Assembly (NCBI GenBank): GCA_964609935.1
Contig: CAZSUQ010000001.1
Coordinates: forward strand, 1-28,361
Source of the DNA: an uncultured Thermodesulfobacteriota bacterium
Lineage (GTDB): Bacteria; Desulfobacterota; DSWW01
Direction of reading: 5' to 3'
DNA length: 28,361 bases
Shown: positions 823 through 28,361 of the stretch, piece by piece
Numbering within the stretch: the stretch's first letter is position 1
Layout of the letters: every line of letters starts with the position of its first letter
Made by a program: the position numbers and the translations under genes
The notes under the pieces: model-generated
Database searches by the model: none
Told to the model about the DNA's origin: nothing
Seen by the model: the letters and a program-made list of their open reading frames with translations, nothing else

Positions 823-852
823 ATTATATGATAATTATTTCAAATTTGTCAA
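823..852 (-). promoter_or_regulatory. Consensus sigma70 promoter directed at csp
   Basis: Minus strand TTGACA (852-847), 18-nt spacer, TATAAT (828-823) in an AT-rich intergenic region. Predicted start site is about 816. Confidence 0.75.
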
Positions 853-879
853 ATGAAGGTTTTAAGGGGGAAGCAAACG

Positions 880-2217
880 ATGGCCGAAAACGGGAAGATT
901 ACGCGGGAAGACATCCATCTCAAGGCAAGGGTGCTGTCCGAAGGCGTAAGGGTGAAAGGCCTGGAGATGCCGCCCTTCAAGGATCTGGCCGACGGCGGCC
1001 ACATCCCCATGCCGGACAAGCTGAACGTGGATGACGTGGAGGAGATCCTGGGGTACTACGCGGATGCGGCTCTCAACGAAGCCAACATGGCCAATTCGCG
1101 CTTCGGCACCCCGTTCAGGTTAGACGGCTGCGGTCTGCAGGTGGCGGTGATTCCCAACCCGTACTCGAGGCTGGATCTCGTGGTTGAGGACGACCGAGTG
1201 ACCCTGATGGACGGGGGGGAGATGCTGGCAACGGGAACGATCCCCGAGCGGCCGGCATGGCAGGATGAGAAGCTCTCCAACGGGATGCCGATCATGGCGG
1301 TCATGCCCCAGGCCACCGCGGGGATCATCAATATCGTGTACAGCCTCTCCTGCATGAACTACAACACGGGCCGGGGATGCCGCTACTGCAACCTGTTCTC
1401 CAATCCCGTGTCCCGGAAGATCGTGATGCTGCCAAAGGAGACGCTGCGGGCCTGGGCCCGCTACCAGGCAGAGGGGATCAGGATCGCCACGGACAGCGGG
1501 TGGAGAGGGACGCTGGCCGTGAGCGGCGGGGCGCTGCCGCCGGCGCACCGGGGCGAGTATCTTGAGAGACTGGAAATCGTGATGAACGAGATCCGGAAGA
1601 TCATCGACGAGAAGACCTTCGGAGAGCTCAGAAAGATCTACAACCACTTCCCGCCCGAGGACTTCAACGACATGCACGTGTGGAAGGATCTCGGCATCGA
1701 CAGCACGAGCATCGATCTCGAGGTGATGGACGATGCATACTTTGCAGCCATCTGCCCGGGAAAGAACGCGTACAAGCCTCTTCCCTACTGGAAGGAGGCC
1801 CAGGAGGCCTCGGTGGAGGTGTTCGGTCCGTACGTGAACTCCACGGGGTGTGTGGTCACGGGAATCGAGCCCATGTCCACGTTGCTGAAGGGGTTCGACG
1901 AAAGGCTGTCAAAGGGGGTTGGGCCCTTGCCGCTCATCTTCGGGCCTGCACCCGGGTCGGACTACAGGGGTTTCCGGCCCCCCAATGCGGACTGGTTTCT
2001 GGAGGTCACGGAAAGGATGGGGGACCTGTTCATGAACCACGGTCCCAAGGTGCTCAAAGCCGTGGTTCAGGCAGGGGGAGGCACCACGTTGAACAGCCCC
2101 CAGTCCATGATGAGGTCCAGTCCCATATCCCTGATCTTCGACGAGGTGCAGCGCAGGTTGCAAAACCTGACGAACGGGGCGGTTGGTCCACCATCGAAAG
2201 AGGAGGCAGGCACATGA
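880..2217 (+). CDS. Radical SAM protein with a CX8CX2C motif (biotin-synthase-related / COG2516-like)
   Basis: CMNYNTGRGCRYC at 1351-1389, then VSGG, SIDLEV...ICPGK and GIEP, typical of this radical SAM group. AAGGGGG precedes ATG 880. Confidence 0.85.
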   Translation: MAENGKITREDIHLKARVLSEGVRVKGLEMPPFKDLADGGHIPMPDKLNVDDVEEILGYYADAALNEANMANSRFGTPFRLDGCGLQVAVIPNPYSRLDLVVEDDRVTLMDGGEMLATGTIPERPAWQDEKLSNGMPIMAVMPQATAGIINIVYSLSCMNYNTGRGCRYCNLFSNPVSRKIVMLPKETLRAWARYQAEGIRIATDSGWRGTLAVSGGALPPAHRGEYLERLEIVMNEIRKIIDEKTFGELRKIYNHFPPEDFNDMHVWKDLGIDSTSIDLEVMDDAYFAAICPGKNAYKPLPYWKEAQEASVEVFGPYVNSTGCVVTGIEPMSTLLKGFDERLSKGVGPLPLIFGPAPGSDYRGFRPPNADWFLEVTERMGDLFMNHGPKVLKAVVQAGGGTTLNSPQSMMRSSPISLIFDEVQRRLQNLTNGAVGPPSKEEAGT

Positions 2218-3212
2218 ACCCGTTGCACAGGCAGTGGTTGGTGAGCGTCAGCGTATGCGCGGTCTGCCTCCTGGCCTGCGACGGCAATACAACCCCACCC
2301 CCGTTTTCCACGATGCTTTCGTCACCACAGAGCCTGGCCACGCTCAACGCGGGCACACACCCCTTGCTGGATCTCATAGAACCATCACCTGTGAGGGACG
2401 TGTGCGATACCTGGTATGGGAACGATCTCTGCACCATGGATGCCGAGGAGCTAGTGAAGGAGGCCATCGCATCGGAGATGCCGGATATCATCCTGTTTCA
2501 GGAGATCTGGGATCAGACACTCTGTGACGGTCCGGCAGGACAATCACCGCCGGCAGACCCGCCGTTTGTCTGCAGTGCGGGGGACGCTCACCAACTGGTC
2601 AGGGTGCTGCCCGAAGACTACGATTTTGCCTGTGGAACGGACAAGCCCGGCAGCAGGGATGCCCTCAGTTGTATTGCCTTCAAGCGTGCGGTCTTCACGC
2701 CTCAAGGACCGCAGGGTGTGGATTCAGGATGCACGAATCGTGATTGTTCCAGTTTGCTGGAGATTCTGGAGACCGAGTGTGATTCGGAGTGGGGCAAGAT
2801 CATCCTGCTTCGAGGACGGACAGGATCCGGCCCCGTGGTTCTGGTGAGCGTCCATCTCTTCCTGGACTTTTCGTTGAGCGCCCTGATGTGCCAGGCGGAG
2901 CAGGTTCGTCTCCTGAGCGATACCCTGGATGGCTTTTCGGGCGATACGCTGGTGATCGTTGGAGGGGACTTCAACCTCGATCTCAGGCTGCCCCTTCTGG
3001 GAGCCGCCGCCCTGGCGGAAATGCAGGCCGAGCAGGGCCTGGACCTCCTCGGCCGAACGGAGCCCACGAATCAGGTTATCCCCTGCCTGCGACTCGACAT
3101 GATCTTCACGCGCGAGTGGGAGGGGGCTGCGGACGCAACCTGTCAGGTGTCGTTCCTCAATCCGGATGAGGGGCCGCCCATGGTTGATCATGGACTGGTC
3201 ATGTGCCGGTAG
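2214..3212 (+). CDS. Endonuclease/exonuclease/phosphatase (EEP) family putative lipoprotein (332 aa)
   Basis: EEP motifs ATLN, ILFQEIW, GGDFN, LDMIF and MVDH. Signal peptide ends in LLAC. ATGA overlap with the radical SAM stop and a GAGGAGG RBS. Confidence 0.8.
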   Translation: MNPLHRQWLVSVSVCAVCLLACDGNTTPPPFSTMLSSPQSLATLNAGTHPLLDLIEPSPVRDVCDTWYGNDLCTMDAEELVKEAIASEMPDIILFQEIWDQTLCDGPAGQSPPADPPFVCSAGDAHQLVRVLPEDYDFACGTDKPGSRDALSCIAFKRAVFTPQGPQGVDSGCTNRDCSSLLEILETECDSEWGKIILLRGRTGSGPVVLVSVHLFLDFSLSALMCQAEQVRLLSDTLDGFSGDTLVIVGGDFNLDLRLPLLGAAALAEMQAEQGLDLLGRTEPTNQVIPCLRLDMIFTREWEGAADATCQVSFLNPDEGPPMVDHGLVMCR

Positions 3213-3276
3213 TCACCTGGTCGGGACATGGGTTGCTTTCCGATGGAGCCCGCATCATTGAAGCACCCCAGGAGAA

Positions 3277-4992
3277 TCAGCGGGGCTCCCATTTCCTTCC
3301 GGCCCAGATCTCGAAGCCGTCCACAGCGTTGGCCACGCCTACCAGGAGGCCCCACCGCGTGGACAGGAGGTTTCGGATCCCGTAGTTGTCATGCTCCCCG
3401 AAGCCCGTGTCGCTGACCTTGATCCAGTTGATACCGTCCCGGGTCCTCCACAGGTCAAAACCGGTGGGGCCCGCGATCAGGTCCACGAGCCAGGCGATCT
3501 CCGGAGGGATCTCTCCCCCGAAGAACTCGGCAATGGCATCCACGCCCATGCCGTTGAAATCGCAGGTTCCCACGTAGAACCACCGGTGGTGTTCACCCAT
3601 GTACCAGCTGTAGAAGTTCGAAGGTTGATCAAAGCCCGGTCCGATGCCCGACAGGGGCTCCACCGGGTCGGGCCCGATGACGCCCGCTTCCCGGGTCTTG
3701 CCCACTACCAGTTCCACATTGTCGTTTGCATCCAGGCGGATGATCTCGGTGCCCTGGATCGCCGCTCCGGTCCCAAAGAAGGGCGGATACGTGAACGTAC
3801 CGATGTAGACGTGATCCCTGAACGGCCGGATGGTCATGAATCCCATGCCGCTGTTGCCGAATCCCCCCTCCACCACGCGCGTCCAGTTCCCCGGCGCCGG
3901 GTCCGTTGTCTTCCAGCACTCCGGTCCTGTCTCGTTGTTGTTGGTGATGGCATAGAGGTGATCGTTGAAAACGGCGAGCTGCCAGATGGAATGGTTGTCC
4001 GGCGTGTCCATCTCGAAGATCTCGAATTGTGAGGTGGCATCCGGAACCGTGTCCCATTCGGCTGCAACCCACAGGGTGGTTCTGTCGTTGGTGAGGATCG
4101 ATCGGGTCTGTCCAGCGCCGGTGCCCGTAAGGATGCGAACCTGTCTTCCCACATGGGAGAAGGGCATCCACCGCCCGGTATCGTCCGTGAGGGTGTCTGT
4201 CGTGGCCAGGTCCACGGTTCCCGACGCATAAACACCGCTGTGAACACCGCCGCCGGAGCTCACGAATCCCGTGCTGTTGGCCTGTTCCCAGGCAGCGGGA
4301 TCGGTGGAGGGATCTGCCGAGCAGAAGATCATGCATGCGCTGTCCGAGGAGATGTAAAGCTTGTCCCGGAAGACCTGGGCCCCGCGGAAGCCGCCCTGTC
4401 CGGCCACGGCCCCCATTCCGGGGGGCGATGCCTTGTGGAAATGGTCGCCGTCCGTGGTCTTGTAGACATAAGCACCTTCAAGGCCGTTTCCTGTCAGGTA
4501 GAGGGCATCATCGAACACACGGGCTCCCCGGAACCCGCCCACCTGTTCATATGGTGGATCCCAGACGCGCTCCCAGGCCCACGTGCCCTTGCCCCTGTTG
4601 TATGTGCCGCGAAACACGTGGACCGGGCTGTTGGTGGCCTCGTAATAGGGCTCCCAGCTGGCGAGGTCCCTCGGGTCGCCCCACAGGTCGTTCCTGCACT
4701 GCCATCGTACCGGAGGGCGGTACGGGATGAGCGGGCAGAGCAGTTCGATCCATGCCATGAGAGGTGCCTGGATACACAGCGCGTTACCAAGGGTGCCCAC
4801 GTAGACCTCGGGCGTCCCGTCACCGTCGCCGTCGAACTGCTCCATGGCCCACGGATAACTGTTGAGGCGGTCGTCCACGCCTTCACCCGCGATCCTTGAA
4901 AAATCCTCTTCTTTCAGGCCGGTATTGCAGGCAAATCCCTGCAACAGGCAGAGGATGACCACAACCTGCTTCAAGAAAGCTCTCTTGTTCAT
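3277..4992 (-). CDS. Exported beta-propeller-type putative lipoprotein with an inserted ~70-aa module
   Basis: Signal peptide MNKRAF...QGFAC. Recurrent blade-like repeats GFRGARVFDDALYL, GFRGAQVFRDKLYI, SIWQLAVFNDHLYA, GFMTIRPFRDHVYIGT and FDLWRTRDG. GGAAGGA RBS precedes ATG 4992. The fold is inferred from the repeats. Confidence 0.7.
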   Translation of the reverse strand: MNKRAFLKQVVVILCLLQGFACNTGLKEEDFSRIAGEGVDDRLNSYPWAMEQFDGDGDGTPEVYVGTLGNALCIQAPLMAWIELLCPLIPYRPPVRWQCRNDLWGDPRDLASWEPYYEATNSPVHVFRGTYNRGKGTWAWERVWDPPYEQVGGFRGARVFDDALYLTGNGLEGAYVYKTTDGDHFHKASPPGMGAVAGQGGFRGAQVFRDKLYISSDSACMIFCSADPSTDPAAWEQANSTGFVSSGGGVHSGVYASGTVDLATTDTLTDDTGRWMPFSHVGRQVRILTGTGAGQTRSILTNDRTTLWVAAEWDTVPDATSQFEIFEMDTPDNHSIWQLAVFNDHLYAITNNNETGPECWKTTDPAPGNWTRVVEGGFGNSGMGFMTIRPFRDHVYIGTFTYPPFFGTGAAIQGTEIIRLDANDNVELVVGKTREAGVIGPDPVEPLSGIGPGFDQPSNFYSWYMGEHHRWFYVGTCDFNGMGVDAIAEFFGGEIPPEIAWLVDLIAGPTGFDLWRTRDGINWIKVSDTGFGEHDNYGIRNLLSTRWGLLVGVANAVDGFEIWAGRKWEPR

Positions 4993-5059
4993 GGTTGTCC
5001 TTCCCCCTGGTTGCACCTTATTTCAGAACCGGATGTTTCTACTTGACAGCCACGAAGAC

Positions 5060-5097
5060 GTATAGTAGATATATCTATACATGCAGTAAACACTGCA
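5060..5097. promoter_or_regulatory. Clustered palindromes, candidate operator(s)
   Basis: Perfect 12-bp palindrome TAGATATATCTA (5066-5077), overlapping GTATAG-N9-CTATAC (5060-5080), and TGCAGT-N4-ACTGCA (5082-5097). They lie between the divergent lipoprotein and tetR genes. Confidence 0.45.
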
Positions 5098-5112
5098 AAT
5101 AAGGTAATTTGT

Positions 5113-5141
5113 ACTTTACTCAATCTCCTCCAGGCTGTCAA
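5113..5141 (-). promoter_or_regulatory. sigma70-type promoter for the beta-propeller lipoprotein gene
   Basis: Minus strand TTGACA (5141-5136), 17-nt spacer, TAAAGT (5118-5113). Confidence 0.6.
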
Positions 5142-5258
5142 GGCAGAAGTTCCAGGAGTTTTACCCGCATATGCATGAAGTCTTCCACTGCTCTTGCGAT
5201 GAAATTTCGCGCAATATGCGGTCTGACTCATTGTCATTAGCGAATCGAGGCCGGCCCC

Positions 5259-5879
5259 ATGGAAACGGAAAATATCGTTCAGAAAACAAAGGACAAGCTG
5301 GTTGAGTACGAGAAGAGGCACCAGGGGATCCTGAAAGCCGCCATGCGGCTGTTCAATGCCAACGGCTATGCTGCAACAACCACAGCGAGCATTGCCAGGG
5401 CCGCGGGCGTTACGGAAAAGACCATGTACAGGCATTTCCAAATCAAGCAGGCCCTGTTTACCGAGTGCGTGTTGTCCATCACGAATGACCTGATGGGGAT
5501 ATGGCAAAAGGAGCGGGAAAGGAACAGGGGTGACAGTCTTGCCTACCTGAAGGCCGTGGCAAGCGCCTATGTGCAATTCGTGATCAACAACCCGGACAAG
5601 TCCATGTTCCTTGTCCACCTGTACAGCTACAGGGGGATCCCTGGAATGGACGAGGGCTTCAGGAGTTTTGTGCAGGATCGCATCAACGAAACCGAAAGGG
5701 TCATTCTCTCTTTGAAGGAGAAGGGCGTGGTCAAGAGCGACCTCCACCCCCGCGTGCTCGCCGGGGTGTTCATCGGTCAGTATTTCACCAATGTCTTTTT
5801 GAATGAGTTCCTTGGACCCGAGCTTTTCAACCCCGATGTCGTCGTCGAGCTGACCAAGGGCCTTTTGCGGATCGATTGA
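5259..5879 (+). CDS. TetR/AcrR family transcriptional regulator
   Basis: N-terminal HTH ILKAAMRLFNANGYAATTTASIARAAGVTEKTMYRHF; 206 aa. Confidence 0.95.
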   Translation: METENIVQKTKDKLVEYEKRHQGILKAAMRLFNANGYAATTTASIARAAGVTEKTMYRHFQIKQALFTECVLSITNDLMGIWQKERERNRGDSLAYLKAVASAYVQFVINNPDKSMFLVHLYSYRGIPGMDEGFRSFVQDRINETERVILSLKEKGVVKSDLHPRVLAGVFIGQYFTNVFLNEFLGPELFNPDVVVELTKGLLRID

Positions 5880-5896
5880 CGGCTCCAGCCCGCAAC

Positions 5897-5938
5897 TTGC
5901 ATGAAAATTCGCCAATCGCAGTAAAAGGCTTCATGCAA
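5897..5938. promoter_or_regulatory. Inverted repeat between tetR and the arylsulfotransferase gene (operator or hairpin)
   Basis: TTGCATGAA (5897-5905) / TTCATGCAA (5930-5938). TGCATGAA also occurs at 5172-5179, upstream of tetR. Confidence 0.4.
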
Positions 5939-5972
5939 TAGGCAGGCTGGTCAGGCAAAGGAGGCTTTCATC

Positions 5973-7361
5973 ATGAACAGAAGGGCAGTGTCTTTGTTGA
6001 GCATCGTCATGTTTACGCTTGTTGCGCTCACCGGTTTCGGGTGCAGCCTGCCGGTTCCCGGCGTCAGCGTCTACAAGCCGGAGAAGTGCGACAACGGCTA
6101 CACCCTGTTGACCTCCTTTGGCGCTCACGAAAGCCCGCCCGGCTCGGGCATCTACCATGGGGCCCTTCTCATCGACATGGAGGCCAGGCTCATCAATGCG
6201 TGGGAGATCACGGGAATGCCGGCCAAGATGCTCCCGGGCGGCCATGTAATGGGGTACGACGCCTTCAGGGACGACGGCAGCGGTCATCAGGACTGCAATG
6301 CTTTGGTGGTTCAGGACTGGTTCGGAAACGAGGTGTGGAGGTGGGACCAGTGGGATGTGGATGATCATGGAAACACCATCAGCCGGGGGCATCATGACTT
6401 TCAGAGGGAAGGCAACCCGGTGGGCTATCCGGTTCCGGGCATGGATCCCCTTGTTCACAGCGGCAAGACCCTCATCCTGAGTCACGAGAACGTGGTCAGG
6501 CCGGACATCGCGCCGTGGATCATCGAGGACGATGTTCTCCTCGAGGTGGATTATGCAGGAAACATCCTCTGGGAATGGCATGCGGTTGATCACCTCGATG
6601 AGTTCGGTTTCACCAGTAAGGCCAGGGCAGCCCTGCAGAGCGTACAGGTGACGGTCCCTGAGATCATGGGCGGGGGAGCCGATGTCACGGACTGGCTGCA
6701 CGTCAACAGCGCGAGTTACCTGGGCCCCAACCGGTTCCATGACCAGGGGGACGCCCGCTTCCATCCGGACAACATCATCGTGGACGCACGCAGCGCCAAC
6801 ATCATCTGGATCATCGAAAGGGCCACAGGGGACATCGTGTGGAAGGTGGGGCCGGACTACGGCTTCTTCCATCCGGAGAGAAAACTCGGTCAGATCATCG
6901 GGCAGCACCACGCCCACATGATCCCCAGGGGGCTTCCCGGCGAGGGGAACATCCTGGTTTTCGACAACGGCGGAGGGGCAGGGTTCGGCAAGCGGCTGGG
7001 CAAGCCCGTGTTCCCGCACAAGTATCGATTCTATTCAAGGGTGATCGAATTCGACCCCACCGATCTCAGCATCGTGTGGGAGTACGAAAGGCAGGAGCCT
7101 GCTCCAGGAGAGTACTACATGTTTTACAGCTACTTCATCAGCGGTGCGCAGCGGCTCCTGAACGGGAACACGCTCATCACCGAGGGCTCCACCGGAAGGG
7201 TGTTCGAGGTCACCGCCTCAGGCGAACTCGTCTGGGAGTACGTCTCCATCTACCACGATCTGTCCTTTGACACGATGCCCGGTCTTCTGCGTTTCGAGAA
7301 CGACGTGTACCGTGCCTACCGGGTCCCTTACGACTCCATTCCCAGCGAGTACCTTCCCTGA
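5973..7361 (+). CDS. Arylsulfate sulfotransferase (ASST) family putative lipoprotein
   Basis: HHDFQREGNPVGY, DWLHVNS, DARS, GQHHAH, LVFDNG and FYSYFISGAQRLLNGNTLITEG. The ASST-type His/Asn/Arg/His catalytic set appears intact. Signal peptide ends in GFGC. Confidence 0.9.
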   Translation: MNRRAVSLLSIVMFTLVALTGFGCSLPVPGVSVYKPEKCDNGYTLLTSFGAHESPPGSGIYHGALLIDMEARLINAWEITGMPAKMLPGGHVMGYDAFRDDGSGHQDCNALVVQDWFGNEVWRWDQWDVDDHGNTISRGHHDFQREGNPVGYPVPGMDPLVHSGKTLILSHENVVRPDIAPWIIEDDVLLEVDYAGNILWEWHAVDHLDEFGFTSKARAALQSVQVTVPEIMGGGADVTDWLHVNSASYLGPNRFHDQGDARFHPDNIIVDARSANIIWIIERATGDIVWKVGPDYGFFHPERKLGQIIGQHHAHMIPRGLPGEGNILVFDNGGGAGFGKRLGKPVFPHKYRFYSRVIEFDPTDLSIVWEYERQEPAPGEYYMFYSYFISGAQRLLNGNTLITEGSTGRVFEVTASGELVWEYVSIYHDLSFDTMPGLLRFENDVYRAYRVPYDSIPSEYLP

Positions 7362-7365
7362 GGGG

Positions 7366-9450
7366 TCAGCCCGTCTTTCTCAGTCGTCTCCGGATGACGG
7401 GGATGGCTCCCAGGGACACGAAGAGCGGACCGAGAAGGTTCAGCGCGTTCGTAACGGGAACGTGGTTGGCGTCCATGGAAGAAGCCGGCGTGCCCCAGGG
7501 AGGGGTGTTGGGGTCGCAGTCGTCATCGATCCCGTTTCCGGGGATCTCCGGAACGCCGGGGCTCACGTCGGGATTCCCATCGTTGCAATCCATCTCCGGG
7601 TGCGGGCATGACAGGGACGCCGGGTCCCCGTATCCGTCCCCGTCGAGATCCGTGCAGTCCAGGTAGGGGGCAAGCGGGTCCGTGTACCAGGAGGCCTCCA
7701 TGGGGCAGATCTGCGCGGGCGCCCCGGGATCGATCTCGCTCCCCTGGTAGGAGAGGCATTCAGGGCAGGCCGTTTCCATGCCCTGCCGGCCGTAAACCAG
7801 CAGGCAGGCGCCGCATGCAAAGGCGTCGCTCGATGGATTTGCGCAGTGCTTGCAGTCCTCGCTCTGGTCCTCCACGAAGTACCCTGTGGGCGTACCCTGC
7901 GGCTCGAGAAGCTGCCAGCCGTCGCGGAGCCGCCGGTTTGCATACGTCATGCCCCACATCCCTTCCTCGTTGCACAGGTAATCGCCGTTCGCGTCACAGA
8001 CCTCGCCCACGAGGTTCAAGCCCCAGGAAAGGGCGAACTCCCGTGTTGCCGTGATCCCGGCCGTGAGGAGGTCTGCGCCCGCATTCCGCTCATGCAGCGC
8101 CTGAATCATGGGGTGCTCGAAGTCGATGCTGCCGATGAGATCGATGACGCGCTGTTCCAGGAAGGCCTCCACGTTGGGGCAGTACACGTCGGCCGCATAG
8201 GCGCACAGGGGGTCTGTTCCCGGGCTCCTCGCATAGGTTCTTGCCGGGTAGTCTGTTTCGTGCAGCATCCACACCGTGACCGCACCGGCCCCGTGGCTGC
8301 AGCCCGTGGCCGAGTATGTGGGGCCGTCGATCAGCGCCTGCACCGGGCTCGTTGTCATCAGGTAGTCCTTCACCGACAGGAACTGGGAGGTCTCGGTGGG
8401 GTACGTGGCCGTGTCCAGACCGCCACCCTCGCAGTAAGGGTCCACGGTGACCACCATGAACCCCCGGTCCGTCCAGGGGCTCACACCGGCGTCATAGTCA
8501 TCCGCACAGGCGCCCCCGCCGCTTATGCTGAACAGCAGCGGACAGGGGGTTGCCGGGGTGCAGGTCTCGTCATCGTATGCCACCTTGAAGCGCGTGGGCA
8601 CCGGGTGCGTGAAGTCGCGGGGGGAGGTGATGAGCACCTCTTCGAAGCAGGTCAGCCCGGCGGCGCAGTAGGTGGGGTGGAAGTCGAACATGTCGCCCTC
8701 GCCCGGAGCGTGGTTGGTGATCAACACCACGTCGATCAGGCCGTCGAACCCTTCGGCGATCTTCACCCCATACCCCTGGGGGGGCTCGAGCCCGGTGACG
8801 TCCACCTCGGCGGCCACCTCGCCGTCCAGGAACAGGCGGACAACAGGCACTACGCCGCTGGTGTCCACGGAGAGGGTCAGATGGTGGTATGCACCGTCAG
8901 CGGGCCAGGAAACACCCGTGGGGATGGAAACCGTTCCCCCGCCGCTGCCGGGCCCTTCGACGACGAACTCGCCGGCAACGAGCTTCACATAATGTGCGTC
9001 GTCGGCCACGAGGATATGGCCTGAGCTTGCATCACGCGCCTTGAGCCATGCGAACAGGGTCATGATCCCTGACCCGGAAATGCCGTAGTCCGGGCACTCG
9101 ATCTCGATGGAGCCGTCGCCGGCCGGAATATCCGCGGCACGCCCGTAACGCCCTTCGGTGATCGCGCTTCGCCGCGCCTCCCCGGTGAGCAGGGCCGTGC
9201 ATTGCCCGATCCCCAGGGAGGAGTTGTTGTTCTGCATGTTGTTCAGTTCTGCGAACCCGTTGTGAGCGCCCGCGCCGTCGATTTCGTCATCAAAGCTCAG
9301 CTCCACCCGGCGCCCCGCGTGTGCAGGATCAAAGGGTGTCAAAGCTGCGGCGAAGATGATCAGAACGCCCAGAAACATGGCGAACCCTCGATATCTTGCA
9401 ACATGCTTGCATGTGCTGTTGATTCCGGCTCTTGCAGTTTCCCTGATCAT
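7366..9450 (-). CDS. Secreted multidomain protein: LamG/ConA-like domain + alpha/beta-hydrolase-like domain + MopE-type metal-binding repeat + C-terminal membrane anchor
   Basis: Signal peptide ending AHA. LamG-like segment (TLFAWLK, YHHLTLSVD, RLFLDGE, FDGLIDVVLI). ISGGG and G-C-S-H-G elbow at 8290-8304. CNDGNPDVSPGVPEIPGNGIDDDCD at about 7513-7587. Hydrophobic tail followed by RRRLRK. AGGAGG RBS. Confidence 0.75.
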   Translation of the reverse strand: MIRETARAGINSTCKHVARYRGFAMFLGVLIIFAAALTPFDPAHAGRRVELSFDDEIDGAGAHNGFAELNNMQNNNSSLGIGQCTALLTGEARRSAITEGRYGRAADIPAGDGSIEIECPDYGISGSGIMTLFAWLKARDASSGHILVADDAHYVKLVAGEFVVEGPGSGGGTVSIPTGVSWPADGAYHHLTLSVDTSGVVPVVRLFLDGEVAAEVDVTGLEPPQGYGVKIAEGFDGLIDVVLITNHAPGEGDMFDFHPTYCAAGLTCFEEVLITSPRDFTHPVPTRFKVAYDDETCTPATPCPLLFSISGGGACADDYDAGVSPWTDRGFMVVTVDPYCEGGGLDTATYPTETSQFLSVKDYLMTTSPVQALIDGPTYSATGCSHGAGAVTVWMLHETDYPARTYARSPGTDPLCAYAADVYCPNVEAFLEQRVIDLIGSIDFEHPMIQALHERNAGADLLTAGITATREFALSWGLNLVGEVCDANGDYLCNEEGMWGMTYANRRLRDGWQLLEPQGTPTGYFVEDQSEDCKHCANPSSDAFACGACLLVYGRQGMETACPECLSYQGSEIDPGAPAQICPMEASWYTDPLAPYLDCTDLDGDGYGDPASLSCPHPEMDCNDGNPDVSPGVPEIPGNGIDDDCDPNTPPWGTPASSMDANHVPVTNALNLLGPLFVSLGAIPVIRRRLRKTG

Positions 9451-9701
9451 GGATCCGTCCTCCTTCCCTGTCTTGGTCGTTGATTGGACACCAGGAAGAT
9501 CGCCGACAGGCAGGCATGGACGCCGAAGCTGATCGCGCGCAACTTCGCCGGCCTCCTGCTCCGATCATATCCCTTCAATGGTTTCTTATAAAGTAAAACA
9601 CAGGAAAAAGGGGAAGGTTCTGATCTTCCTGCGGAAAGTGTAGAATAGGTCAACATGGCAGGGTCATCTTCAGCAATGAAACGCGTATCGGAGAATGCAT
9701 A

Positions 9702-10355
9702 ATGTTTCCATTCATGAGAACGATAAGATCGGTGACAGGGGCCAAGCTTCTTGGCCTGATGTTTGCCTGTGCCGCGCTCGCGGTGGCGGTTGTGCTGGTG
9801 GCGGTGGGGGCCCTCACCTGGCTCACGGCCCACCTGGTGGACATCCAGATCGGATGGCTGGACAGCCTGGTCAACTGGCTCACAGGCGGCATTCTGGGCG
9901 TTGCCGGCTGGTTCATGCTGCCCGCGATCATTGTGCTCGTATCCGGCATGTTTCAGGAAAAGACGATCCACCGGGTGGAGCTTGCCTACTACCCGGATGA
10001 GGTGCGTACCGAGGAGCCCGGGTTCTGGCCCGACCTGGCGCATGACATCCGGTTCACCTTGAGGGCGTTGATTCTCAATGTCCTGGTCCTGCCTCTGTAC
10101 CTCCTTGGTATCGGCTTTGTCATATCCGTTCTCCTCAACAGCTACCTTTTGGGTCGCGAGTTCTTCGAAGGTGCTGCCGGTTATCACATCGGGAAGCCGG
10201 AAGCCAAAACCATCGGTCAGCGGAACAGGGTCGCGGTCTACGGGGGCGGTCTCGTGATCACGCTGATGGCCCTGGTGCCCGTGATGAACCTCTTCGTCCC
10301 GATCTTTGCCGTCGTCTGGATGGTGCATGTTTATCACGGGTTGAAGAAGGGATGA
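9702..10355 (+). CDS. EI24/CysZ-like membrane protein
   Basis: Several hydrophobic helices, FQEKTIHRVELAYYP and NSYLLGREFFE, typical of EI24-domain proteins. Confidence 0.75.
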   Translation: MFPFMRTIRSVTGAKLLGLMFACAALAVAVVLVAVGALTWLTAHLVDIQIGWLDSLVNWLTGGILGVAGWFMLPAIIVLVSGMFQEKTIHRVELAYYPDEVRTEEPGFWPDLAHDIRFTLRALILNVLVLPLYLLGIGFVISVLLNSYLLGREFFEGAAGYHIGKPEAKTIGQRNRVAVYGGGLVITLMALVPVMNLFVPIFAVVWMVHVYHGLKKG

Positions 10356-10365
10356 CCGCCTGCAT

Positions 10366-10400
10366 GCCGTCTCTGCAGGAAGGTCGCAGAGGCGGCTGTT
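10366..10400 (+). terminator. Hairpin after the EI24 gene, possible terminator
   Basis: GCCGTCTCTGC-N9-GCAGAGGCGGC (11 bp, one G.U pair), followed only by TGTT, a weak U-tract. Confidence 0.35.
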
Positions 10401-10608
10401 AGAGATTTCACGAAACGTGTGCTCTCCCCGGGAAAATGAAAACTCGAATCGCCTGTTCACGGCCGAGCCGACTTTCCGTCTCCGCAGCTTCTGCTCATTA
10501 CGTAAGCTTCCCGGTTCATTCCTCACCCTGAATTCGGGTAGAAAAACCGGCTTCTTTACACTGCCGGACCTGCCCCACCTGTCTTCTGAAACCCTCCTGA
10601 AAATTCCC

Positions 10609-10638
10609 TTGACAAGTCCCGGCGGATTCGGGTACAAA
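10609..10638 (+). promoter_or_regulatory. Possible sigma70 promoter of the IclR operon
   Basis: TTGACA (10609-10614), 18-nt spacer, TACAAA (10633-10638). The -10 match is imperfect. Confidence 0.4.
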
Positions 10639-10645
10639 ACAGGCA

Positions 10646-10682
10646 GTTGCATATAATGATATTGAGTTGCAAATAGCGCAAC
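10646..10682. promoter_or_regulatory. Candidate tandem IclR operator
   Basis: GTTGC-AAATAGC-GCAAC (10666-10682) is preceded 20 bp upstream by a degenerate copy GTTGC-ATATAAT-GATAT (10646-10662), just before the IclR start. Confidence 0.55.
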
Positions 10683-10698
10683 ATAGATCAGGGAGAGC

Positions 10699-11484
10699 AT
10701 GGAACAAAAACCCAGCACACACGCTGCCGTGGAGAAGGCCTTGAGGATCCTGCTCGCCTTCACACCTCAAAACGAAGGCCTGGGGACCCAGGAGCTGAGT
10801 GAAAAGCAAGGGCTCCACAAGTCCACCACCAACCGCCTGCTCAAGGTCCTTGAGAAACACGGGTTCGTTGAACAGGACGCAGAGACGAAGAAATATCAGC
10901 TGGGGAGATCCGCGGTTCAGATTGGAAGGGCTGTTGTACAGTCCCTGGACACACGTCTGGTTTCCATTGCAAGGCCTTATGTCCACAACCTCCGCGACCA
11001 GCTGAACGAGGGCGTGGCCCTGGAGGTGTGGGCCGGGGACACCACGGTTTTGTCCTACGCAGTGGAAGGGCCCCGGCTCGTCCGGGTCTCGGCCGACCTG
11101 GGGCAGCGAATGCCCGTGCACGTTGCCGCCGGAGCCAGGGCGATCATGGCCTTTTTGCCACCGGAGATCGTGGACGAGCTGCTCAGGCAACAGTTCACAC
11201 GCTACACAAGAAAAACGGTGACCGATCCGCGTGTCATCAAGCGCAGGCTGAAGGATGTAAGGAAAGCCGGGGTGGCATTTGATTACGGCGAGTTGGACGC
11301 GGACATGCAGGGTATGGCGGCCCCGGTCTTTAATTACAGCCAACGGCCCGTGGCAGCCATTGTGACCGTGGGGCCGGCCTCACGCATGAAGGCAGTCATG
11401 GGATCCAAAAAAACGACTTTCCTGCTAAAGGAAACCGCAGCGAACATTTCGTCCAGGCTTTACTATGACAGGGAGGAAACATGA
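10699..11484 (+). CDS. IclR family transcriptional regulator
   Basis: AVEKALRILLAF, HTH LSEKQGLHKSTTNRLLKVLEKHGFVEQD...KYQLG, and effector domain AGARAIMAF...MAAPVF. Confidence 0.95.
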   Translation: MEQKPSTHAAVEKALRILLAFTPQNEGLGTQELSEKQGLHKSTTNRLLKVLEKHGFVEQDAETKKYQLGRSAVQIGRAVVQSLDTRLVSIARPYVHNLRDQLNEGVALEVWAGDTTVLSYAVEGPRLVRVSADLGQRMPVHVAAGARAIMAFLPPEIVDELLRQQFTRYTRKTVTDPRVIKRRLKDVRKAGVAFDYGELDADMQGMAAPVFNYSQRPVAAIVTVGPASRMKAVMGSKKTTFLLKETAANISSRLYYDREET

Positions 11485-24537: not shown

Positions 24538-24791
24538 GTGCCTAGCTCCTTCGTTTCAAGTGTGATCTGTCAAATCCCCTGAATCATTACATTCCGACAC
24601 ACATGTTTCATGATAAAGAAGCAGCCCGGGTCTCGGTGCCGCTGTATTCCCGGAAGCCGGGAGGAAGGGGGTTCAAGTTGAATGACCAGGAATTTAGGTG
24701 AAGGTTCGAGTCAGAGTCAAGGGGTGCCCTGCGGCACCTGGTTAAAACATTGGATGCGCCTGCCCCTTCTTTTGTTCCACAACCCCGGTGG

Positions 24792-25472
24792 CTACCTGAG
24801 TGCCGGATCTCGATAAAAACGCTTGAGCCTGGAAGGAGGAACACCAAGGTGGTACAGGAAGACGAGAATCGTGTTCCGTATCTGCTGCCTTGCCACGCCG
24901 TGGGTGATGAACCTCCTTGCCGCGCTCACCACCGGGGTGCGGATCTTGAGAAACCCGCCCATGTTTCTGAGCCGCTGCTGGATTTCAATGTCCTCCATGA
25001 TCGGGATGTCCCTGAAGCCCCCGATACGCTCGAAGGTTCGCCGGCGCACGAACAGCCCCTGGTCGCCGTAGGTGAAAAGCATGTGATTGATCCGGCTGAA
25101 GAAACAGATGGCGCGAAGCAGGGGGGTCTGCCGGTCAAACCCCAGACAAAAACTCCCCCCGATGATTTCTCCGGATGAGAATGCCGAACGGATCAGTTCC
25201 AAACCGTTGGGCGGCAGGCGGGTGTCCGCGTGCAGGAAGAGGAGGATTTCCCCCTTTGCTAGCACGGCTCCGGCGTTCATCTGACTGGCTCGTCCCCTTG
25301 CTCCCTCCACACACCTCACCGCAGGGAACCCCTTCACGATCTCCAGGGTCCCGTCTTCGCTTCCCCCATCAGACACAACGACCTCGAAACCGCCTTGCTG
25401 TTCCATCAAGGCGTTGAGAGAGGAGGCGATGAAGTCGGCCTCATTCAGGCTTGGAATGATAATGGAAATCAT
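24792..25472 (-). CDS. GT2 glycosyltransferase, TIGR04283-type (arsenosugar / rSAM-selenodomain-associated family)
   Basis: ISIIIPSLNEA, SDGGSEDGT, GRASQMNAGA, LLFLHADTRLP, YGDQGLF and IMED. The family is assigned from recognised motifs; no HMM was run. Confidence 0.8.
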   Translation of the reverse strand: MISIIIPSLNEADFIASSLNALMEQQGGFEVVVSDGGSEDGTLEIVKGFPAVRCVEGARGRASQMNAGAVLAKGEILLFLHADTRLPPNGLELIRSAFSSGEIIGGSFCLGFDRQTPLLRAICFFSRINHMLFTYGDQGLFVRRRTFERIGGFRDIPIMEDIEIQQRLRNMGGFLKIRTPVVSAARRFITHGVARQQIRNTILVFLYHLGVPPSRLKRFYRDPALR

Positions 25473-25547
25473 TTCGAATCACGATAATCGGCTCTGTTCG
25501 TTGTTCCGTATCGAGCCCTTGTATGATGAAGGCCTTCCTGTCCCGGC

Positions 25548-26306
25548 CTATTCAACCCTGCCTCCAAAAGCGAAGATCGTCCCCTGAATGATGGGCGTGA
25601 TGGCCGCGATCTGCTCGAACGTGAAGTAGGCGCCGCGTATCCTGTGGGTGCTTTTTCGATATTCCCGTGCGTGTTCTTCTGACCAGAAGAATACACACTT
25701 CTGTCAGAACGCGTGGATGATGCTCGGGTCCTCCAGCGCGTAGAGGTCCACATCCGGTACAAAGACGAGGGGATCCGCCCCCTGCTCCCTGACGCTGTAT
25801 TTGAGCTCACTGTCTATTTCCACGTGCATCTGCCGGGAGCAGTGAGCGCATTCCGTCCCCACCAGGACCGAAAGGGGCTCTCCACGCAATTGCCCTTGCA
25901 CGAAGGGCGACGCAAACGCGTCGGCCGCTCAGGCCGCGTAGAGCTGTTCCCCCGTGCTGAACGTGAGGTGGTGCGGCGTGGGTTCAACGGTCACCGGATA
26001 CGCCCAGACGACTTCCCCTTCACGGTTTCGGTAGAGGAACGTCATGTGCGCTTCCATCTCTGCCAGGATCTCGGGAACGCGTTCCGCGGGCATTCCCAGG
26101 TTGTCGGCGATGAATCCCGGCGATAGGGGTTGCCCGGCACGGGGAAGCTCCCTGACGACAAAATGATGAACCGTCCGATGTTCATCGGTCATGAACCCGG
26201 TTTCGGCATCGATTTTCTTCTTCATTCTGTGAATCTGTTTCTTCCAGAGGGTCGGCGGAACCTGGAGCATGATCCTCCAGAATCCGCTCATGAGCTTGTT
26301 GCTCAT
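25548..26306 (-). CDS. MerB (alkylmercury lyase)-like protein with two predicted selenocysteines (U126, U201), 252 aa
   Basis: One frame runs from ATG 26306 to TAG 25550-25548, with in-frame TGA at 25931-25929 (LYAA-U-AAD) and 25706-25704 (HAF-U-QKCVFFWS). These align with MerB LYAWCALD and SFCCHVHFF. SECIS-like hairpins follow both TGAs. Confidence 0.82.
25669..25698 (-). promoter_or_regulatory. Bacterial SECIS-like element after the second UGA
   Basis: UGA-CAGAA-GUGUG-(UA bulge)-UUCUUCU-[GGUC]-AGAAGAA-CACGC. The upper stem starts 12 nt after UGA and the apical loop contains GGU. Confidence 0.75.
25884..25921 (-). promoter_or_regulatory. Bacterial SECIS-like element after the first UGA
   Basis: Upper stem GCCCUU-[CGUGC]-AAGGGC with its loop 26 nt after UGA, and lower stem ACGCG/UGCGU. 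A competing hairpin GACGC-GUUU-GCGUC is possible. Confidence 0.55.
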
Positions 26307-27670
26307 GGCATGTCTCCCCTTGTTGAGAATCGCAGTACAACAAAGCCAAGTACAGCAGAAAGGATGGACGCTGCAAAGATACCCACCTTGGAGTACATGA
26401 GCATCTGAGGGTCTTCAAAGGCCAGGCCGTTGATGAACAGGGCCATGGTGAAGCCGATCCCAGCCAGACAGGCTACTCCAGCGATCATGGTCCAGGTAAC
26501 CCCCTTTGGAATCTCCGCGAGGCCGAGTCTGGCGGCACACCATGAAAAGAGAAAGATTCCCACAGGCTTTCCGAGCAAGAGCCCGAGGAAGACGCCCATG
26601 GGTAACGGATTGGAAATCAACATCGTCAGGTTCACATCCGTGAGATGAACACCTGCATTGGCAAAGGCAAAGACAGGGATCACGACGAAGCTGATCCAGG
26701 GATGGAGGTCATGAACAAGCCGGTTCAGGGGGGAGATGGCGCGCGTGATGTCCCGGGCTTCCTTCACCAGATCCGGGGCGCTCTCCGGGTGGACGAGTTC
26801 CTGGTCATGATCTACCCGTACGGACTGAACAACCTTGTCGGTGAGTCTTTGCAGGGAGTCGGCAAGAACCGGTGGCCGGACCCAGTTTTCAAGGGGTGTG
26901 AGAAGCCCCAGAAGGACGCCGGAGATGGTGGGGTGAATGCCGGACTTGAGGAACGAAAGCCACACCAGGAAACCCACGGCGCCGCTGACCCAGATTCGCC
27001 GCACGCCGATGTACCGGACAAGGACCATGAGGCCGAAAGAGAGGGCCGCTGCACCCAGGGCCAGGCCGGAAAGCTGCTCGGTGTAGAAGAAGGCGATCAC
27101 CAGGACCGCGCCCAGGTCGTCCACGATGGCCAGGGCGAGAAGAAAGACCTTGAGCGAGACAGGCAGGCTCCGGGTGAGGAGTACCAGGATCCCCACGGCA
27201 AAGGCGATGTCCGTGGCCATGGGAATGCCCCAGCCCTTTGCGCCGGGTTCGCCGAGATTGAACAGGAGAAAGATGGCCGCCGGAAGGATCATCCCGCCCA
27301 GGGCCGCGGCAATGGGCAGAACCGCCTTCTTGGGTGTGGAGAGCTCGCCGATGGTGAGCTCCCTTTTGATCTCCATCCCGATGAAAAAGAAGAACAGGGT
27401 CATGAGGGCGTCGTTGATCCAGTGAACCAGGGTGTTGTCCAGGACAAAAGATCCGATCTGGAGCTTGCATCGCATGTGAATGAGATGGTGGTACGATTCC
27501 CACCAGGGGGAGTTGGCCCAGATCAGTGCGGCACCCGTGCTGAGCAGGAGAAGGATGCCCCCCGCGGACTCGGTCCGGAGGAACTGCTCCACCGGATAGG
27601 CAAGGTACTGAACCGCTTTTGCAACCGTGTGGTCAGGGCCTGACTCGATGTCGTTTTTCGTGTCTTTCAT
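26303..27670 (-). CDS. nhaA: Na+/H+ antiporter NhaA (455 aa)
   Basis: HWINDALMTLFFFFIGMEIKRE, GWGIPMATDIAF, LAIVDDLGA, GKPVGI and GIGFTMALFI. AGGAAGGA precedes ATG 27670. Confidence 0.96.
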   Translation of the reverse strand: MKDTKNDIESGPDHTVAKAVQYLAYPVEQFLRTESAGGILLLLSTGAALIWANSPWWESYHHLIHMRCKLQIGSFVLDNTLVHWINDALMTLFFFFIGMEIKRELTIGELSTPKKAVLPIAAALGGMILPAAIFLLFNLGEPGAKGWGIPMATDIAFAVGILVLLTRSLPVSLKVFLLALAIVDDLGAVLVIAFFYTEQLSGLALGAAALSFGLMVLVRYIGVRRIWVSGAVGFLVWLSFLKSGIHPTISGVLLGLLTPLENWVRPPVLADSLQRLTDKVVQSVRVDHDQELVHPESAPDLVKEARDITRAISPLNRLVHDLHPWISFVVIPVFAFANAGVHLTDVNLTMLISNPLPMGVFLGLLLGKPVGIFLFSWCAARLGLAEIPKGVTWTMIAGVACLAGIGFTMALFINGLAFEDPQMLMYSKVGIFAASILSAVLGFVVLRFSTRGDMP

Positions 27671-27693
27671 GGTCCTTCCTGAGGTGCAAGTCT

Positions 27694-28361
27694 CTACATC
27701 AACCAGCCTGCGGCACTCCGGGCGATATCCAGGAACGGCGCAGGATAGATCCCTGCCGTGACCAGCAGGGCGATCATGCCCCATGTCAGCAGCTTGGTGG
27801 CCAAGGAGAGCTGAAGCGGGGGCAAGGCTTCATCCCCTTCCAGGAGGTAGGCGGCCCGGATGATCATGAGGTAATAGTAGAGCGAGATGACCACGTTGAA
27901 CATAGCGATGAAGACCAGGGCAAGGTGTCCCTGCTCGATGGCCGCAAGAAAGATCACGAGCTTGCCTGTGAAGCCCATCGTGGGTGGGATGCCGGCCAGG
28001 CTGAAGGCGCTCACCATGAGGGCCAGTGCCAGAAGGGGGGAGCGATGATGGAGCCCGGCAAGTTGATCGATCCGAAGGTTGTCCCCGCCGGAGGCCACCT
28101 TCACCACCACGAGGAAGAAGGTGAACTGCATCACCATGTATGCCAGGGCATAGAAGAGGGTCCCGGTGAAGCCGTCCCGGCTCATGCAGAGGATCCCGAT
28201 CAGGATGTAGCCCGCATGGGCGATGCTCGAATAGGCCAGAAGCCGCTTCAGGTCCTTCTGAACGATGGCCACAAGGTTCCCCAGGGTCATGGAGACAACG
28301 GACAGGGTCACCAGGATGTGGGTGAGGAAGGAGCTCTGGCCGCCCACGAGCGAGACCATGC
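27694..28361 (-). CDS. nuoN: NADH-quinone oxidoreductase subunit N (C-terminal part; 5' end outside the window)
   Basis: GNLVAIVQKDLKRLLAYSSIAHAGY, SLAGIPPTMGFTGK and VISLYYYL. Confidence 0.88.
   Translation of the reverse strand, partial: MVSLVGGQSSFLTHILVTLSVVSMTLGNLVAIVQKDLKRLLAYSSIAHAGYILIGILCMSRDGFTGTLFYALAYMVMQFTFFLVVVKVASGGDNLRIDQLAGLHHRSPLLALALMVSAFSLAGIPPTMGFTGKLVIFLAAIEQGHLALVFIAMFNVVISLYYYLMIIRAAYLLEGDEALPPLQLSLATKLLTWGMIALLVTAGIYPAPFLDIARSAAGWLM

Follow-up and report, generated by a model that had tools for sequence, protein, structure and literature searches.

A MerB-like protein with predicted selenocysteine at both metal-binding cysteine positions, encoded in a lineage-specific gene arrangement of an uncultured Thermodesulfobacteriota bacterium

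Introduction

Can a gene interrupted by two in-frame stop codons encode a metal-active enzyme, and do its neighbours tell what that enzyme acts on? The question is raised by a stretch of 28,361 nucleotides from an uncultured Thermodesulfobacteriota bacterium (GTDB lineage Bacteria; Desulfobacterota; DSWW01; GenBank assembly GCA_964609935.1, contig CAZSUQ010000001.1, positions 1 to 28,361 of the forward strand), which is referred to here, at its full length, as the window. On its minus strand the 3′ part of nuoN, an nhaA gene, a gene for a MerB-like protein and a gene for a GT2 glycosyltransferase of family TIGR04283 follow one another. In an earlier note on this DNA, the MerB-like protein and the glycosyltransferase were proposed to form an organometalloid module expressed with respiratory genes, or else to be adjacent by accident.

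A MerB homologue with selenocysteine (Sec) has been described: SaoL, a MerB-homologous organometallic lyase selenoprotein of the nine-gene SAO locus (Haft and Gwadz, bioRxiv 10.1101/2022.07.06.499078). The same authors proposed that a MerB homologue carrying Sec at its metal site may have an altered substrate range, pointed out that MerB binds other metals, and doubted that mercury is the only substrate. SaoL was the sole MerB-like selenoprotein found in the literature, where no double-Sec form was found; under MerB, two reviews of prokaryotic selenoproteomes give SaoL alone, and the main text of a 2026 selenoprotein database paper contains no MerB entry.

Results

Reading frame, family and active site

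The MerB-like frame opens at 26306 and runs to a TAG at 25550-25548 through two in-frame TGA codons, 126 and 201 (Table 1). TGA serves as an ordinary stop in the source organism, as the end of nhaA shows; the two within the MerB-like gene therefore need recoding. Translation of TGA as Trp (genetic code 4, as in some JGI gene calls) was considered and rejected because of the nhaA stop and because both internal TGAs stand at catalytic Cys positions. Searching the PDB sequences by using phmmer placed 'LYAA[U]AADAF' on MerB 'LYAWCALDTL' and 'IHAF[U]QKCVFFWS' on MerB 'VRQSFCSHVHFFAS'. The three catalytic positions of MerB are aligned in this way, U126, D129 and U201 with C96, D99 and C159, and the Asp is kept. 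Read from these alignments, both metal-binding Cys residues of MerB are replaced by predicted selenocysteine. Among 28 full-length homologues Asp129 is invariant; of the Cys153-Ala-His-Cys156 (CxxC) motif, Cys153 is invariant and Cys156 nearly so. Cys153 was aligned with Cys117 of MerB in the phmmer search against the MerB structures.

With both Sec codons written as Cys, the protein scored 53.6 bits against the Pfam MerB family (PF03243; gathering score 27) over residues 106-235, and it is thus placed in that family. It fell well below the cut-offs of the NCBIfam MerB equivalogs NF009710 (57.8 versus 193) and NF033555 (49.7 versus 200) and of the SaoL model NF040728 (40.7 versus 140); no model of NCBIfam release 20 was passed. 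The AlphaFold model of a 62%-identical homologue (P0001, which carries Trp in the database at its two Sec positions) has a pLDDT of 89.9 and a pTM of 0.87. In a Foldseek search with this model the top 11 PDB matches were all MerB or MerB2 (E 2.4e-10 to 1e-6), with a TM of 0.77 to the target, and a MerB fold is predicted for the MerB-like protein from the model of its homologue.

The protein thus shares Pfam family and predicted fold with MerB (3F0O/3F0P; MerB2 5C17; best Foldseek E 2.4e-10), but differs from it in having Sec at both catalytic Cys positions, an identity of only about 18-19%, an N-terminal extension of about 40 residues and the CxxC motif. The genes differ too: those of the MerB-like proteins were never found beside merA, merT or merP, are off plasmids and belong to uncultured anaerobes. 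With SaoL the protein has in common Sec at the Cys159 position, occurrence in anaerobes and truncation at TGA in the databases. SaoL, by contrast, contains a single Sec, within a CU dipeptide, and has retained the Cys equivalent to Cys96; in the new protein two Sec residues stand in ...YAA-U-AAD... and ...HAF-U-QKC..., with no CU dipeptide, and near the MerB-like genes there is no recurrent ABC transporter, efflux pump or double-cubane protein.

Hairpins downstream of the two UGA codons

Hairpins resembling selenocysteine insertion sequences (SECIS) are predicted directly 3′ of both UGAs. After the second UGA, the core UUCUUCU-GGUC-AGAAGAA is lengthened by five further pairs (minimum free energy -15.4 kcal/mol, z = -3.49), and none of 200 shuffled sequences folded as well. 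In 81 sequences 89.8% of the cells were paired, against 40-62% when the partner was slid. At the pair that closes the loop, 64 sequences have U-A, 12 have C-G and three have U-G. The change of U to C in this pair turns Trp into Arg in FFWSEE, and the accompanying change of the partner base is synonymous (TCA to TCG); this coupling indicates that RNA pairing is maintained at the cost of an amino acid. The GGUC loop lies at nt 23-26 counted from the U of the second UGA, much as the GGUC apical loop of the Escherichia coli K-12 fdhF SECIS lies at nt 22-25 in a hairpin after UGA; unlike the fdhF element, the hairpin has another stem sequence and no evident bulged U.

The region after the first UGA departs further from fdhF, with a CGUGC loop at nt 30-34 relative to the first TGA and a small hairpin in front of it. 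The small hairpin (GACGC-GUUU-GCGUC) is 77.2% paired across the family, and C-G is replaced by U-A in eight sequences. For the second hairpin of this region, (G)CCCUU-CGUGC-AAGGG(C), 93.5% of the cells were paired in 81 sequences (31-59% when slid), and G-C at the base is replaced by U-A in five sequences.

The most conserved motifs following the Sec residues, PFVQG (25891-25909) and FFWSEE(H) (25669-25696), are encoded by the hairpin stems, in which synonymous positions are nearly frozen (TTC TTC, GAA, CCC, GTG, GGG). A scan of the window with Rfam gave no match at the gathering thresholds, so that no curated SECIS family applies.

Extent of the Sec/Sec clade

Relatives of the MerB-like protein were found in 295 species genomes (one genome per species was scanned), and the best 80 loci were fetched and examined. 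All 80, which come from other species and are 52-66% identical, have TGA at both codons, so that the internal TGAs are not a matter of chance. In 79 of the 80 loci TGA accounts for both of the first two in-frame stops, and the 80th has the same pair after an extra upstream TAA. Judged by record titles, the lineages are mostly Desulfobacterota (Syntrophaceae, Smithellaceae, Desulfomonilaceae, Desulfobacterales), together with several Chloroflexota, two Nitrospirota and a few from other groups. As far as the coding sequences tell, this is a large clade of strict-anaerobe lineages with Sec at both Hg-binding Cys positions of MerB, and within the literature and the NCBIfam release searched it appears to be undescribed.

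In the protein databases most relatives end at residue 125, and a minority have Cys at the first position and end at residue 200; the gene in the window is itself annotated by automatic callers as products of 125 and 41 aa. The 'full-length' JGI entries (P0001-P0039) have Trp at both Sec positions, with Gly in one. Such residues look like the product of short contigs having been called under genetic code 4 or 25, and alignments or models built on these entries would be led astray.

Searched with a profile, 1.84 billion representatives yielded 820 clusters (50% identity) at E<=0.001, and the best 150 of these mostly stop at profile position 125. In more remote full-length relatives the two Sec sites are occupied by Ser, Cys or other residues. 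Among 72,556 plasmids there was a sole match, of 27% identity, on a plasmid of Simkania negevensis (NC_015710.1:57927-58418). It lies under a gene annotated as merA, which suggests a MerB-MerA fusion or a mis-annotation.

Gene arrangement in the window

The identities of the four genes, their common strand, both gaps and the ATGA overlap had been described in the earlier note, and all were borne out (Table 1).

Table 1. Positions, in the window, of the genes, codons and predicted RNA elements discussed in the text.
Feature	Position	Strand	Basis
nuoN, 3′ part (complex I subunit N)	27694..28361	-	Pfam Proton_antipo_M, 125.9 bits; best NCBIfam model NuoN TIGR01770, fragment
nuoN-nhaA spacer, 23 nt	27671..27693	-	read directly; Shine-Dalgarno AGGAAGG
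nhaA, Na+/H+ antiporter, 455 aa	26303..27670	-	Pfam Na_H_antiport_1, 494.8 bits, E 1.8e-148
MerB-like gene (predicted selenoprotein), 252 codons + TAG	25548..26306	-	translation; Sec126, Sec201
In-frame TGA, codon 126 (predicted Sec)	25929..25931	-	aligns with MerB Cys96; TGA in 80/80 related loci
GAC, Asp129	25920..25922	-	aligns with MerB proton donor Asp99; invariant in 28 full-length homologues
SECIS-like region after first TGA, two hairpins	25891..25922	-	conservation and covariation
Cys153-Ala-His-Cys156 (CxxC) codons	25839..25850	-	alignment to MerB
In-frame TGA, codon 201 (predicted Sec)	25704..25706	-	aligns with MerB Cys159; '*' in all 80 contexts
SECIS-like hairpin after second TGA, core UUCUUCU-GGUC-AGAAGAA	25669..25696	-	folding and covariation
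Spacer between MerB-like gene and GT2, 75 nt	25473..25547	-	read directly
GT2 glycosyltransferase, family TIGR04283, 226 aa	24792..25472	-	TIGR04283 and Pfam Glycos_transf_2
Sigma-70-like promoter match, sole one on minus strand	24691..24720	-	consensus scan, 9/12; between GT2 and flavodiiron gene

The upstream part of nuoN lies beyond the end of the window, and its stop is a TAG at 27696-27694. The nhaA gene is full-length, with its ATG at 27670, and its product scored 418.5 bits against TIGR00773 (cut-off 254). Its TGA stop (26305-26303) overlaps the ATG of the MerB-like gene (26306-26304), and the Shine-Dalgarno sequence of the latter, GGGGAG, lies within the 3′ end of nhaA; from these two features nhaA and the MerB-like gene are probably translationally coupled. 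The GT2 gene starts with an ATG at 25472, ahead of which no clear Shine-Dalgarno sequence was seen. Its product passes the TIGR04283 equivalog cut-off at full length (230.2 bits versus 182, profile positions 1-221 of 221). The definition of this family (rSAM/selenodomain-associated transferase 2) rests on its association with ArsS, a radical SAM protein, and TIGR04282; unlike in that setting, neither is encoded in the window or in the 26-kb source contig, and arsM is likewise absent from both. Close homologues of the window GT2 are also often solitary.

Downstream of GT2, a flavodiiron gene follows after 254 nt, and then thiO, thiS, thiG and thiE. Promoters and terminators were sought by consensus scans, which are of limited value, and neither a promoter-like nor a terminator-like match was found in the nuoN-nhaA gap or in the gap between the MerB-like gene and GT2. 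The single promoter-like match on the minus strand may mark the start of the next unit after GT2; it is weak evidence, as 9/12 matches were no commoner than in shuffled sequence. On this layout the nuo genes, nhaA, the MerB-like gene and GT2 may plausibly be transcribed together.

In a metagenome the same contig reaches further upstream, through nuoG-H-I-J-K-L-M. Window positions 26303-28361 together with this extension (L081/L087) show nhaA attached to the tail of a complete nuoG-to-nuoN complex I operon; in no other locus examined did nhaA adjoin nuoN.

The absence of merA, merR, merT and merP from the window, likewise part of the earlier description, was confirmed: Tn21 MerR, MerT, MerP, MerC, MerA, MerD and MerE queries gave no tblastn match in the window at E<=1e-3, and Pfam scans of its other large open reading frames (ORFs) revealed no mer or ars genes. 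A tRNA scan of the window found none. The G+C content is 0.47 at 1-1000 and 0.51 at 5001-6000 and about 0.6 elsewhere, and several large ORFs in the region 850-10800 have no Pfam match.

The DNA sequencing runs that hold the locus are marine-labelled only. In a sediment metatranscriptome (run X5), a 215-nt contig matched window positions 25940-26154, in the N-terminal half of the MerB-like gene, with about 96% identity, and ended just short of the first TGA; a close relative of the MerB-like gene is therefore transcribed somewhere. Three seawater RNA runs gave no match to the locus.

Conservation of the neighbouring genes

The NuoN, NhaA, GT2, flavodiiron, ThiO and ThiG proteins of the window were used as tblastn queries against the 80 loci. 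NuoN, flavodiiron, ThiO and ThiG gave no match. An NhaA gene adjoins the MerB-like gene in one locus (L037:10864-12081; product 39% identical to the window NhaA), 107 nt downstream and with both genes on one strand; in the window nhaA is upstream. The adjacency of nhaA and a MerB-like gene is now seen in two unrelated cases, the window and L037, and one case in 80 is about what chance would give.

GT2-like sequences were found in three of the 80 loci, and a true TIGR04283 in one of these. There (L024:14073-15488) a fused TIGR04282-TIGR04283 gene, encoded on the opposite strand, is separated from the MerB-like gene by 3.3 kb, with three unrelated genes in between; a nearby 749-aa protein contains a second, weak TIGR04283-like domain. 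The remaining two, in L077 (a generic GT2) and L034 (an ArnC-like enzyme), were rejected as TIGR04283. The L077 gene (Anaerolineales; L077:10986-11831) lies 229 nt downstream on the same strand and scored 55.7 against the TIGR04283 cut-off of 182.

Among metagenome contigs long enough to be informative, the three closest relatives found have neither nhaA nor GT2 alongside. The exact arrangement of the window was found only on contigs from several marine-labelled samples; all of these encode identical proteins, which points to one population. The search for GT2 homologues returned 3240 at E<=1e-20, and three close ones lie in unrelated contexts without a MerB-like gene. A 125-aa gene near one GT2 homologue (L093), considered as a second pair of this kind, was rejected on account of its unrelated translation.

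By a rough estimate, in which a 20-kb locus is taken to contain about 20 genes and a genome one or two members of each family, a few tenths of a match would be expected by chance in the 80 loci; the single matches for nhaA and for TIGR04283 are therefore not evidence of linkage.

Recurrent neighbours in other species

All ORFs of at least 90 aa, mechanically called within 6 kb of the 80 copies, were clustered. Directly upstream on the same strand, a MarR-type winged-helix protein (150 aa) is encoded in 23 loci and a MerR-family protein (180-210 aa) in 17; directly downstream, again on the same strand, a YbgC/FadM-type acyl-CoA thioesterase is encoded in about 8-10 loci. Pfam searches with 74 upstream and 74 downstream neighbours gave MarR (19), HTH_24 (20), MerR_1 (15) and 4HBT (8). 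Besides these regulators, the thioesterase and scattered histidine kinases, no ORF cluster was present in more than seven loci. Thus about half of the other species examined have a MarR-type or MerR-family regulator of its own upstream of the gene, which fits an inducible single-gene function.

The MerR-family regulators match Tn21 MerR mostly through the N-terminal DNA-binding domain (residues 6-75). A metal-sensing role for them was rejected, as MerR, CueR and ZntR were matched only N-terminally and no conserved Cys pair is present. Across the 80 loci and the window (1.24 Mb), tblastn with MerA, MerT, MerP, MerC and MerE gave no match, save one Pyr_redox-type fragment of 27% identity.

A MarR-type regulator gene, the Sec/Sec MerB-like gene and the thioesterase gene lie on one strand in L030, L039, L046, L054, L060, L062, L068 and L075, the three-gene set being located at about 9.4-11.3 kb in the 20-kb loci. 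This set may indicate that part of the clade is linked to acyl-CoAs or aromatic acids.

Discussion

Proposed function of the MerB-like protein

The reading that we favour, with some reserve, is that the locus is a lineage-specific juxtaposition of genes around a stand-alone Sec/Sec enzyme of predicted MerB fold, probably a carbon-metal(loid) lyase. Synthesis of the enzyme would involve two SelB-dependent UGA recodings, each directed by a downstream hairpin that doubles as coding sequence. In a protonolysis of the MerB type, the two selenolates would act as ligands for the soft centre (metal or metalloid) of an organometal(loid), with Asp129 protonating the leaving carbon, as Asp99 does in MerB with Cys96 and Cys159; no MerA would be available as acceptor of the product. 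An organomercurial, methylmercury or another, is the leading candidate for the substrate on homology alone, and is put forward as a tentative choice. The caution over an organomercury substrate expressed in the earlier note was reasonable, because the MerB and SaoL equivalog cut-offs were missed.

Several observations weigh against this interpretation. The folding energy of the hairpin after the first TGA is not unusual in the window (z = -0.84), so that the case for the first recoding element rests on conservation. The Sec-insertion genes (selA, selB, selC, selD) are not within the window. The upstream MarR-type and MerR-family regulators miss all NCBIfam equivalog cut-offs, those of metal sensors included, and have no conserved cysteine or cysteine pair; they are therefore not typical sensors of Hg, Cu, Zn or As. 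This lack of cysteines tells against a simple role in mercury resistance, as do the absence of a nearby gene for MerA or another acceptor and the difficulty with which two selenolates would be expected to give up Hg(II). A Sec/Sec pair together with a CxxC motif would also suit a redox role. Synteny, finally, was judged within 10 kb and in 80 of the 295 genomes.

Other explanations

A MerB-type lyase might act, under anoxic conditions, on an organometal(loid) other than mercury, such as methylarsenite, alkyl-tin or alkyl-lead. The MerB entries 5U79 and 5U7A-C of the PDB are complexes with organotin and organolead compounds. That the MerB equivalog cut-offs are missed and that the gene is never within a mer operon speak for such a substrate, as does the argument on substrate range made by Haft and Gwadz (bioRxiv 10.1101/2022.07.06.499078). 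Yet genes for handling arsenic (ars), tin or lead do not recur nearby, and the link to arsenic rests solely on the GT2 neighbour, which is not conserved; the proposal is an unlikely one.

Rather doubtful, too, is a redox protein in place of a lyase, in which Sec126 and Sec201 on a reused MerB scaffold would cycle between diselenide and diselenol and be serviced by Cys153-x-x-Cys156. The two Sec residues brought together in a MerB-type active site would suit this, and so would the strong conservation of the CxxC motif, regulators without metal-binding cysteines and the lack of genes for metal transport or reduction nearby; most bacterial selenoproteins, moreover, are redox enzymes, according to the reviews as well. 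A pure dithiol/diselenol role would not, however, need Asp129, the equivalent of the MerB proton donor, which is invariant. The position with which Cys153 aligns, Cys117 of MerB, is buried and is no active-site residue, and no thioredoxin-like partner recurs in the neighbourhood.

The module proposed earlier, in which the MerB-like selenoprotein and the TIGR04283 transferase would carry out C-As cleavage or an arsenosugar-type reaction and be expressed with complex I and NhaA, is very improbable. In its favour are the adjacency of the genes, which share a strand and are set close together without a terminator-like site, and the NCBI name of TIGR04283, arsenosugar biosynthesis glycosyltransferase; so are the fused gene 3.3 kb from the MerB-like gene in L024 and the nhaA directly downstream of it in L037. 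The synteny check on the 80 loci went against it, with nhaA in one locus, TIGR04283 in one and nuoN in none, so that 78 of the 80 have neither neighbour. The L024 gene stands on the opposite strand behind three unrelated genes; by the rough estimate above, a few tenths of such a match would arise by chance; ArsS, TIGR04282 and arsM are missing from the window and its source contig; close GT2 homologues have unrelated neighbours, and the arrangement is confined to one population. Of the two branches left by the earlier note, incidental adjacency is the better supported, given that synteny is not conserved and that the closest relatives lack both neighbours.

That the two TGAs are real stops, in a pseudogene or a 125-aa fragment as the automatic 125-aa and 41-aa products would have it, is scarcely credible: the frame runs on for a further 126 codons, homologous to MerB right up to its end, both TGAs fall exactly on catalytic Cys positions, and in 80 of 80 species both are kept and have hairpins downstream.

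Significance

The favoured reading, a stand-alone Sec/Sec MerB-fold enzyme among incidental neighbours, bears first on annotation: the context, an arsenosugar-type transferase and respiratory genes taken as a module, is ordinary gene shuffling and is unsuited to annotation of the enzyme. Mercury surveys count merB by profile models, and gene callers end the MerB-like gene at codon 125; as a consequence, a clade that occurs in no fewer than 295 anaerobic species is either missed or mis-scored. Many of these 295 species belong to orders that include known mercury methylators.

If the prediction is correct, this would be a rare enzyme in which both metal ligands are selenocysteine, with two recoding events in one short mRNA. 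It is conceivable, if improbable, that the Sec/Sec clade represents the MerA-independent carbon-metal lyase of strict anaerobes, either the enzyme responsible for mer-independent degradation of methylmercury in anoxic sediments or the first anaerobic C-As or C-Sn lyase; its two selenolates would then let it capture substrate in sulfidic settings even at very low concentration. Should cleavage of C-Hg or other carbon-metal(loid) bonds without MerA prove true, the gene would be a candidate for inclusion in models of methylmercury turnover in anoxic sediments.

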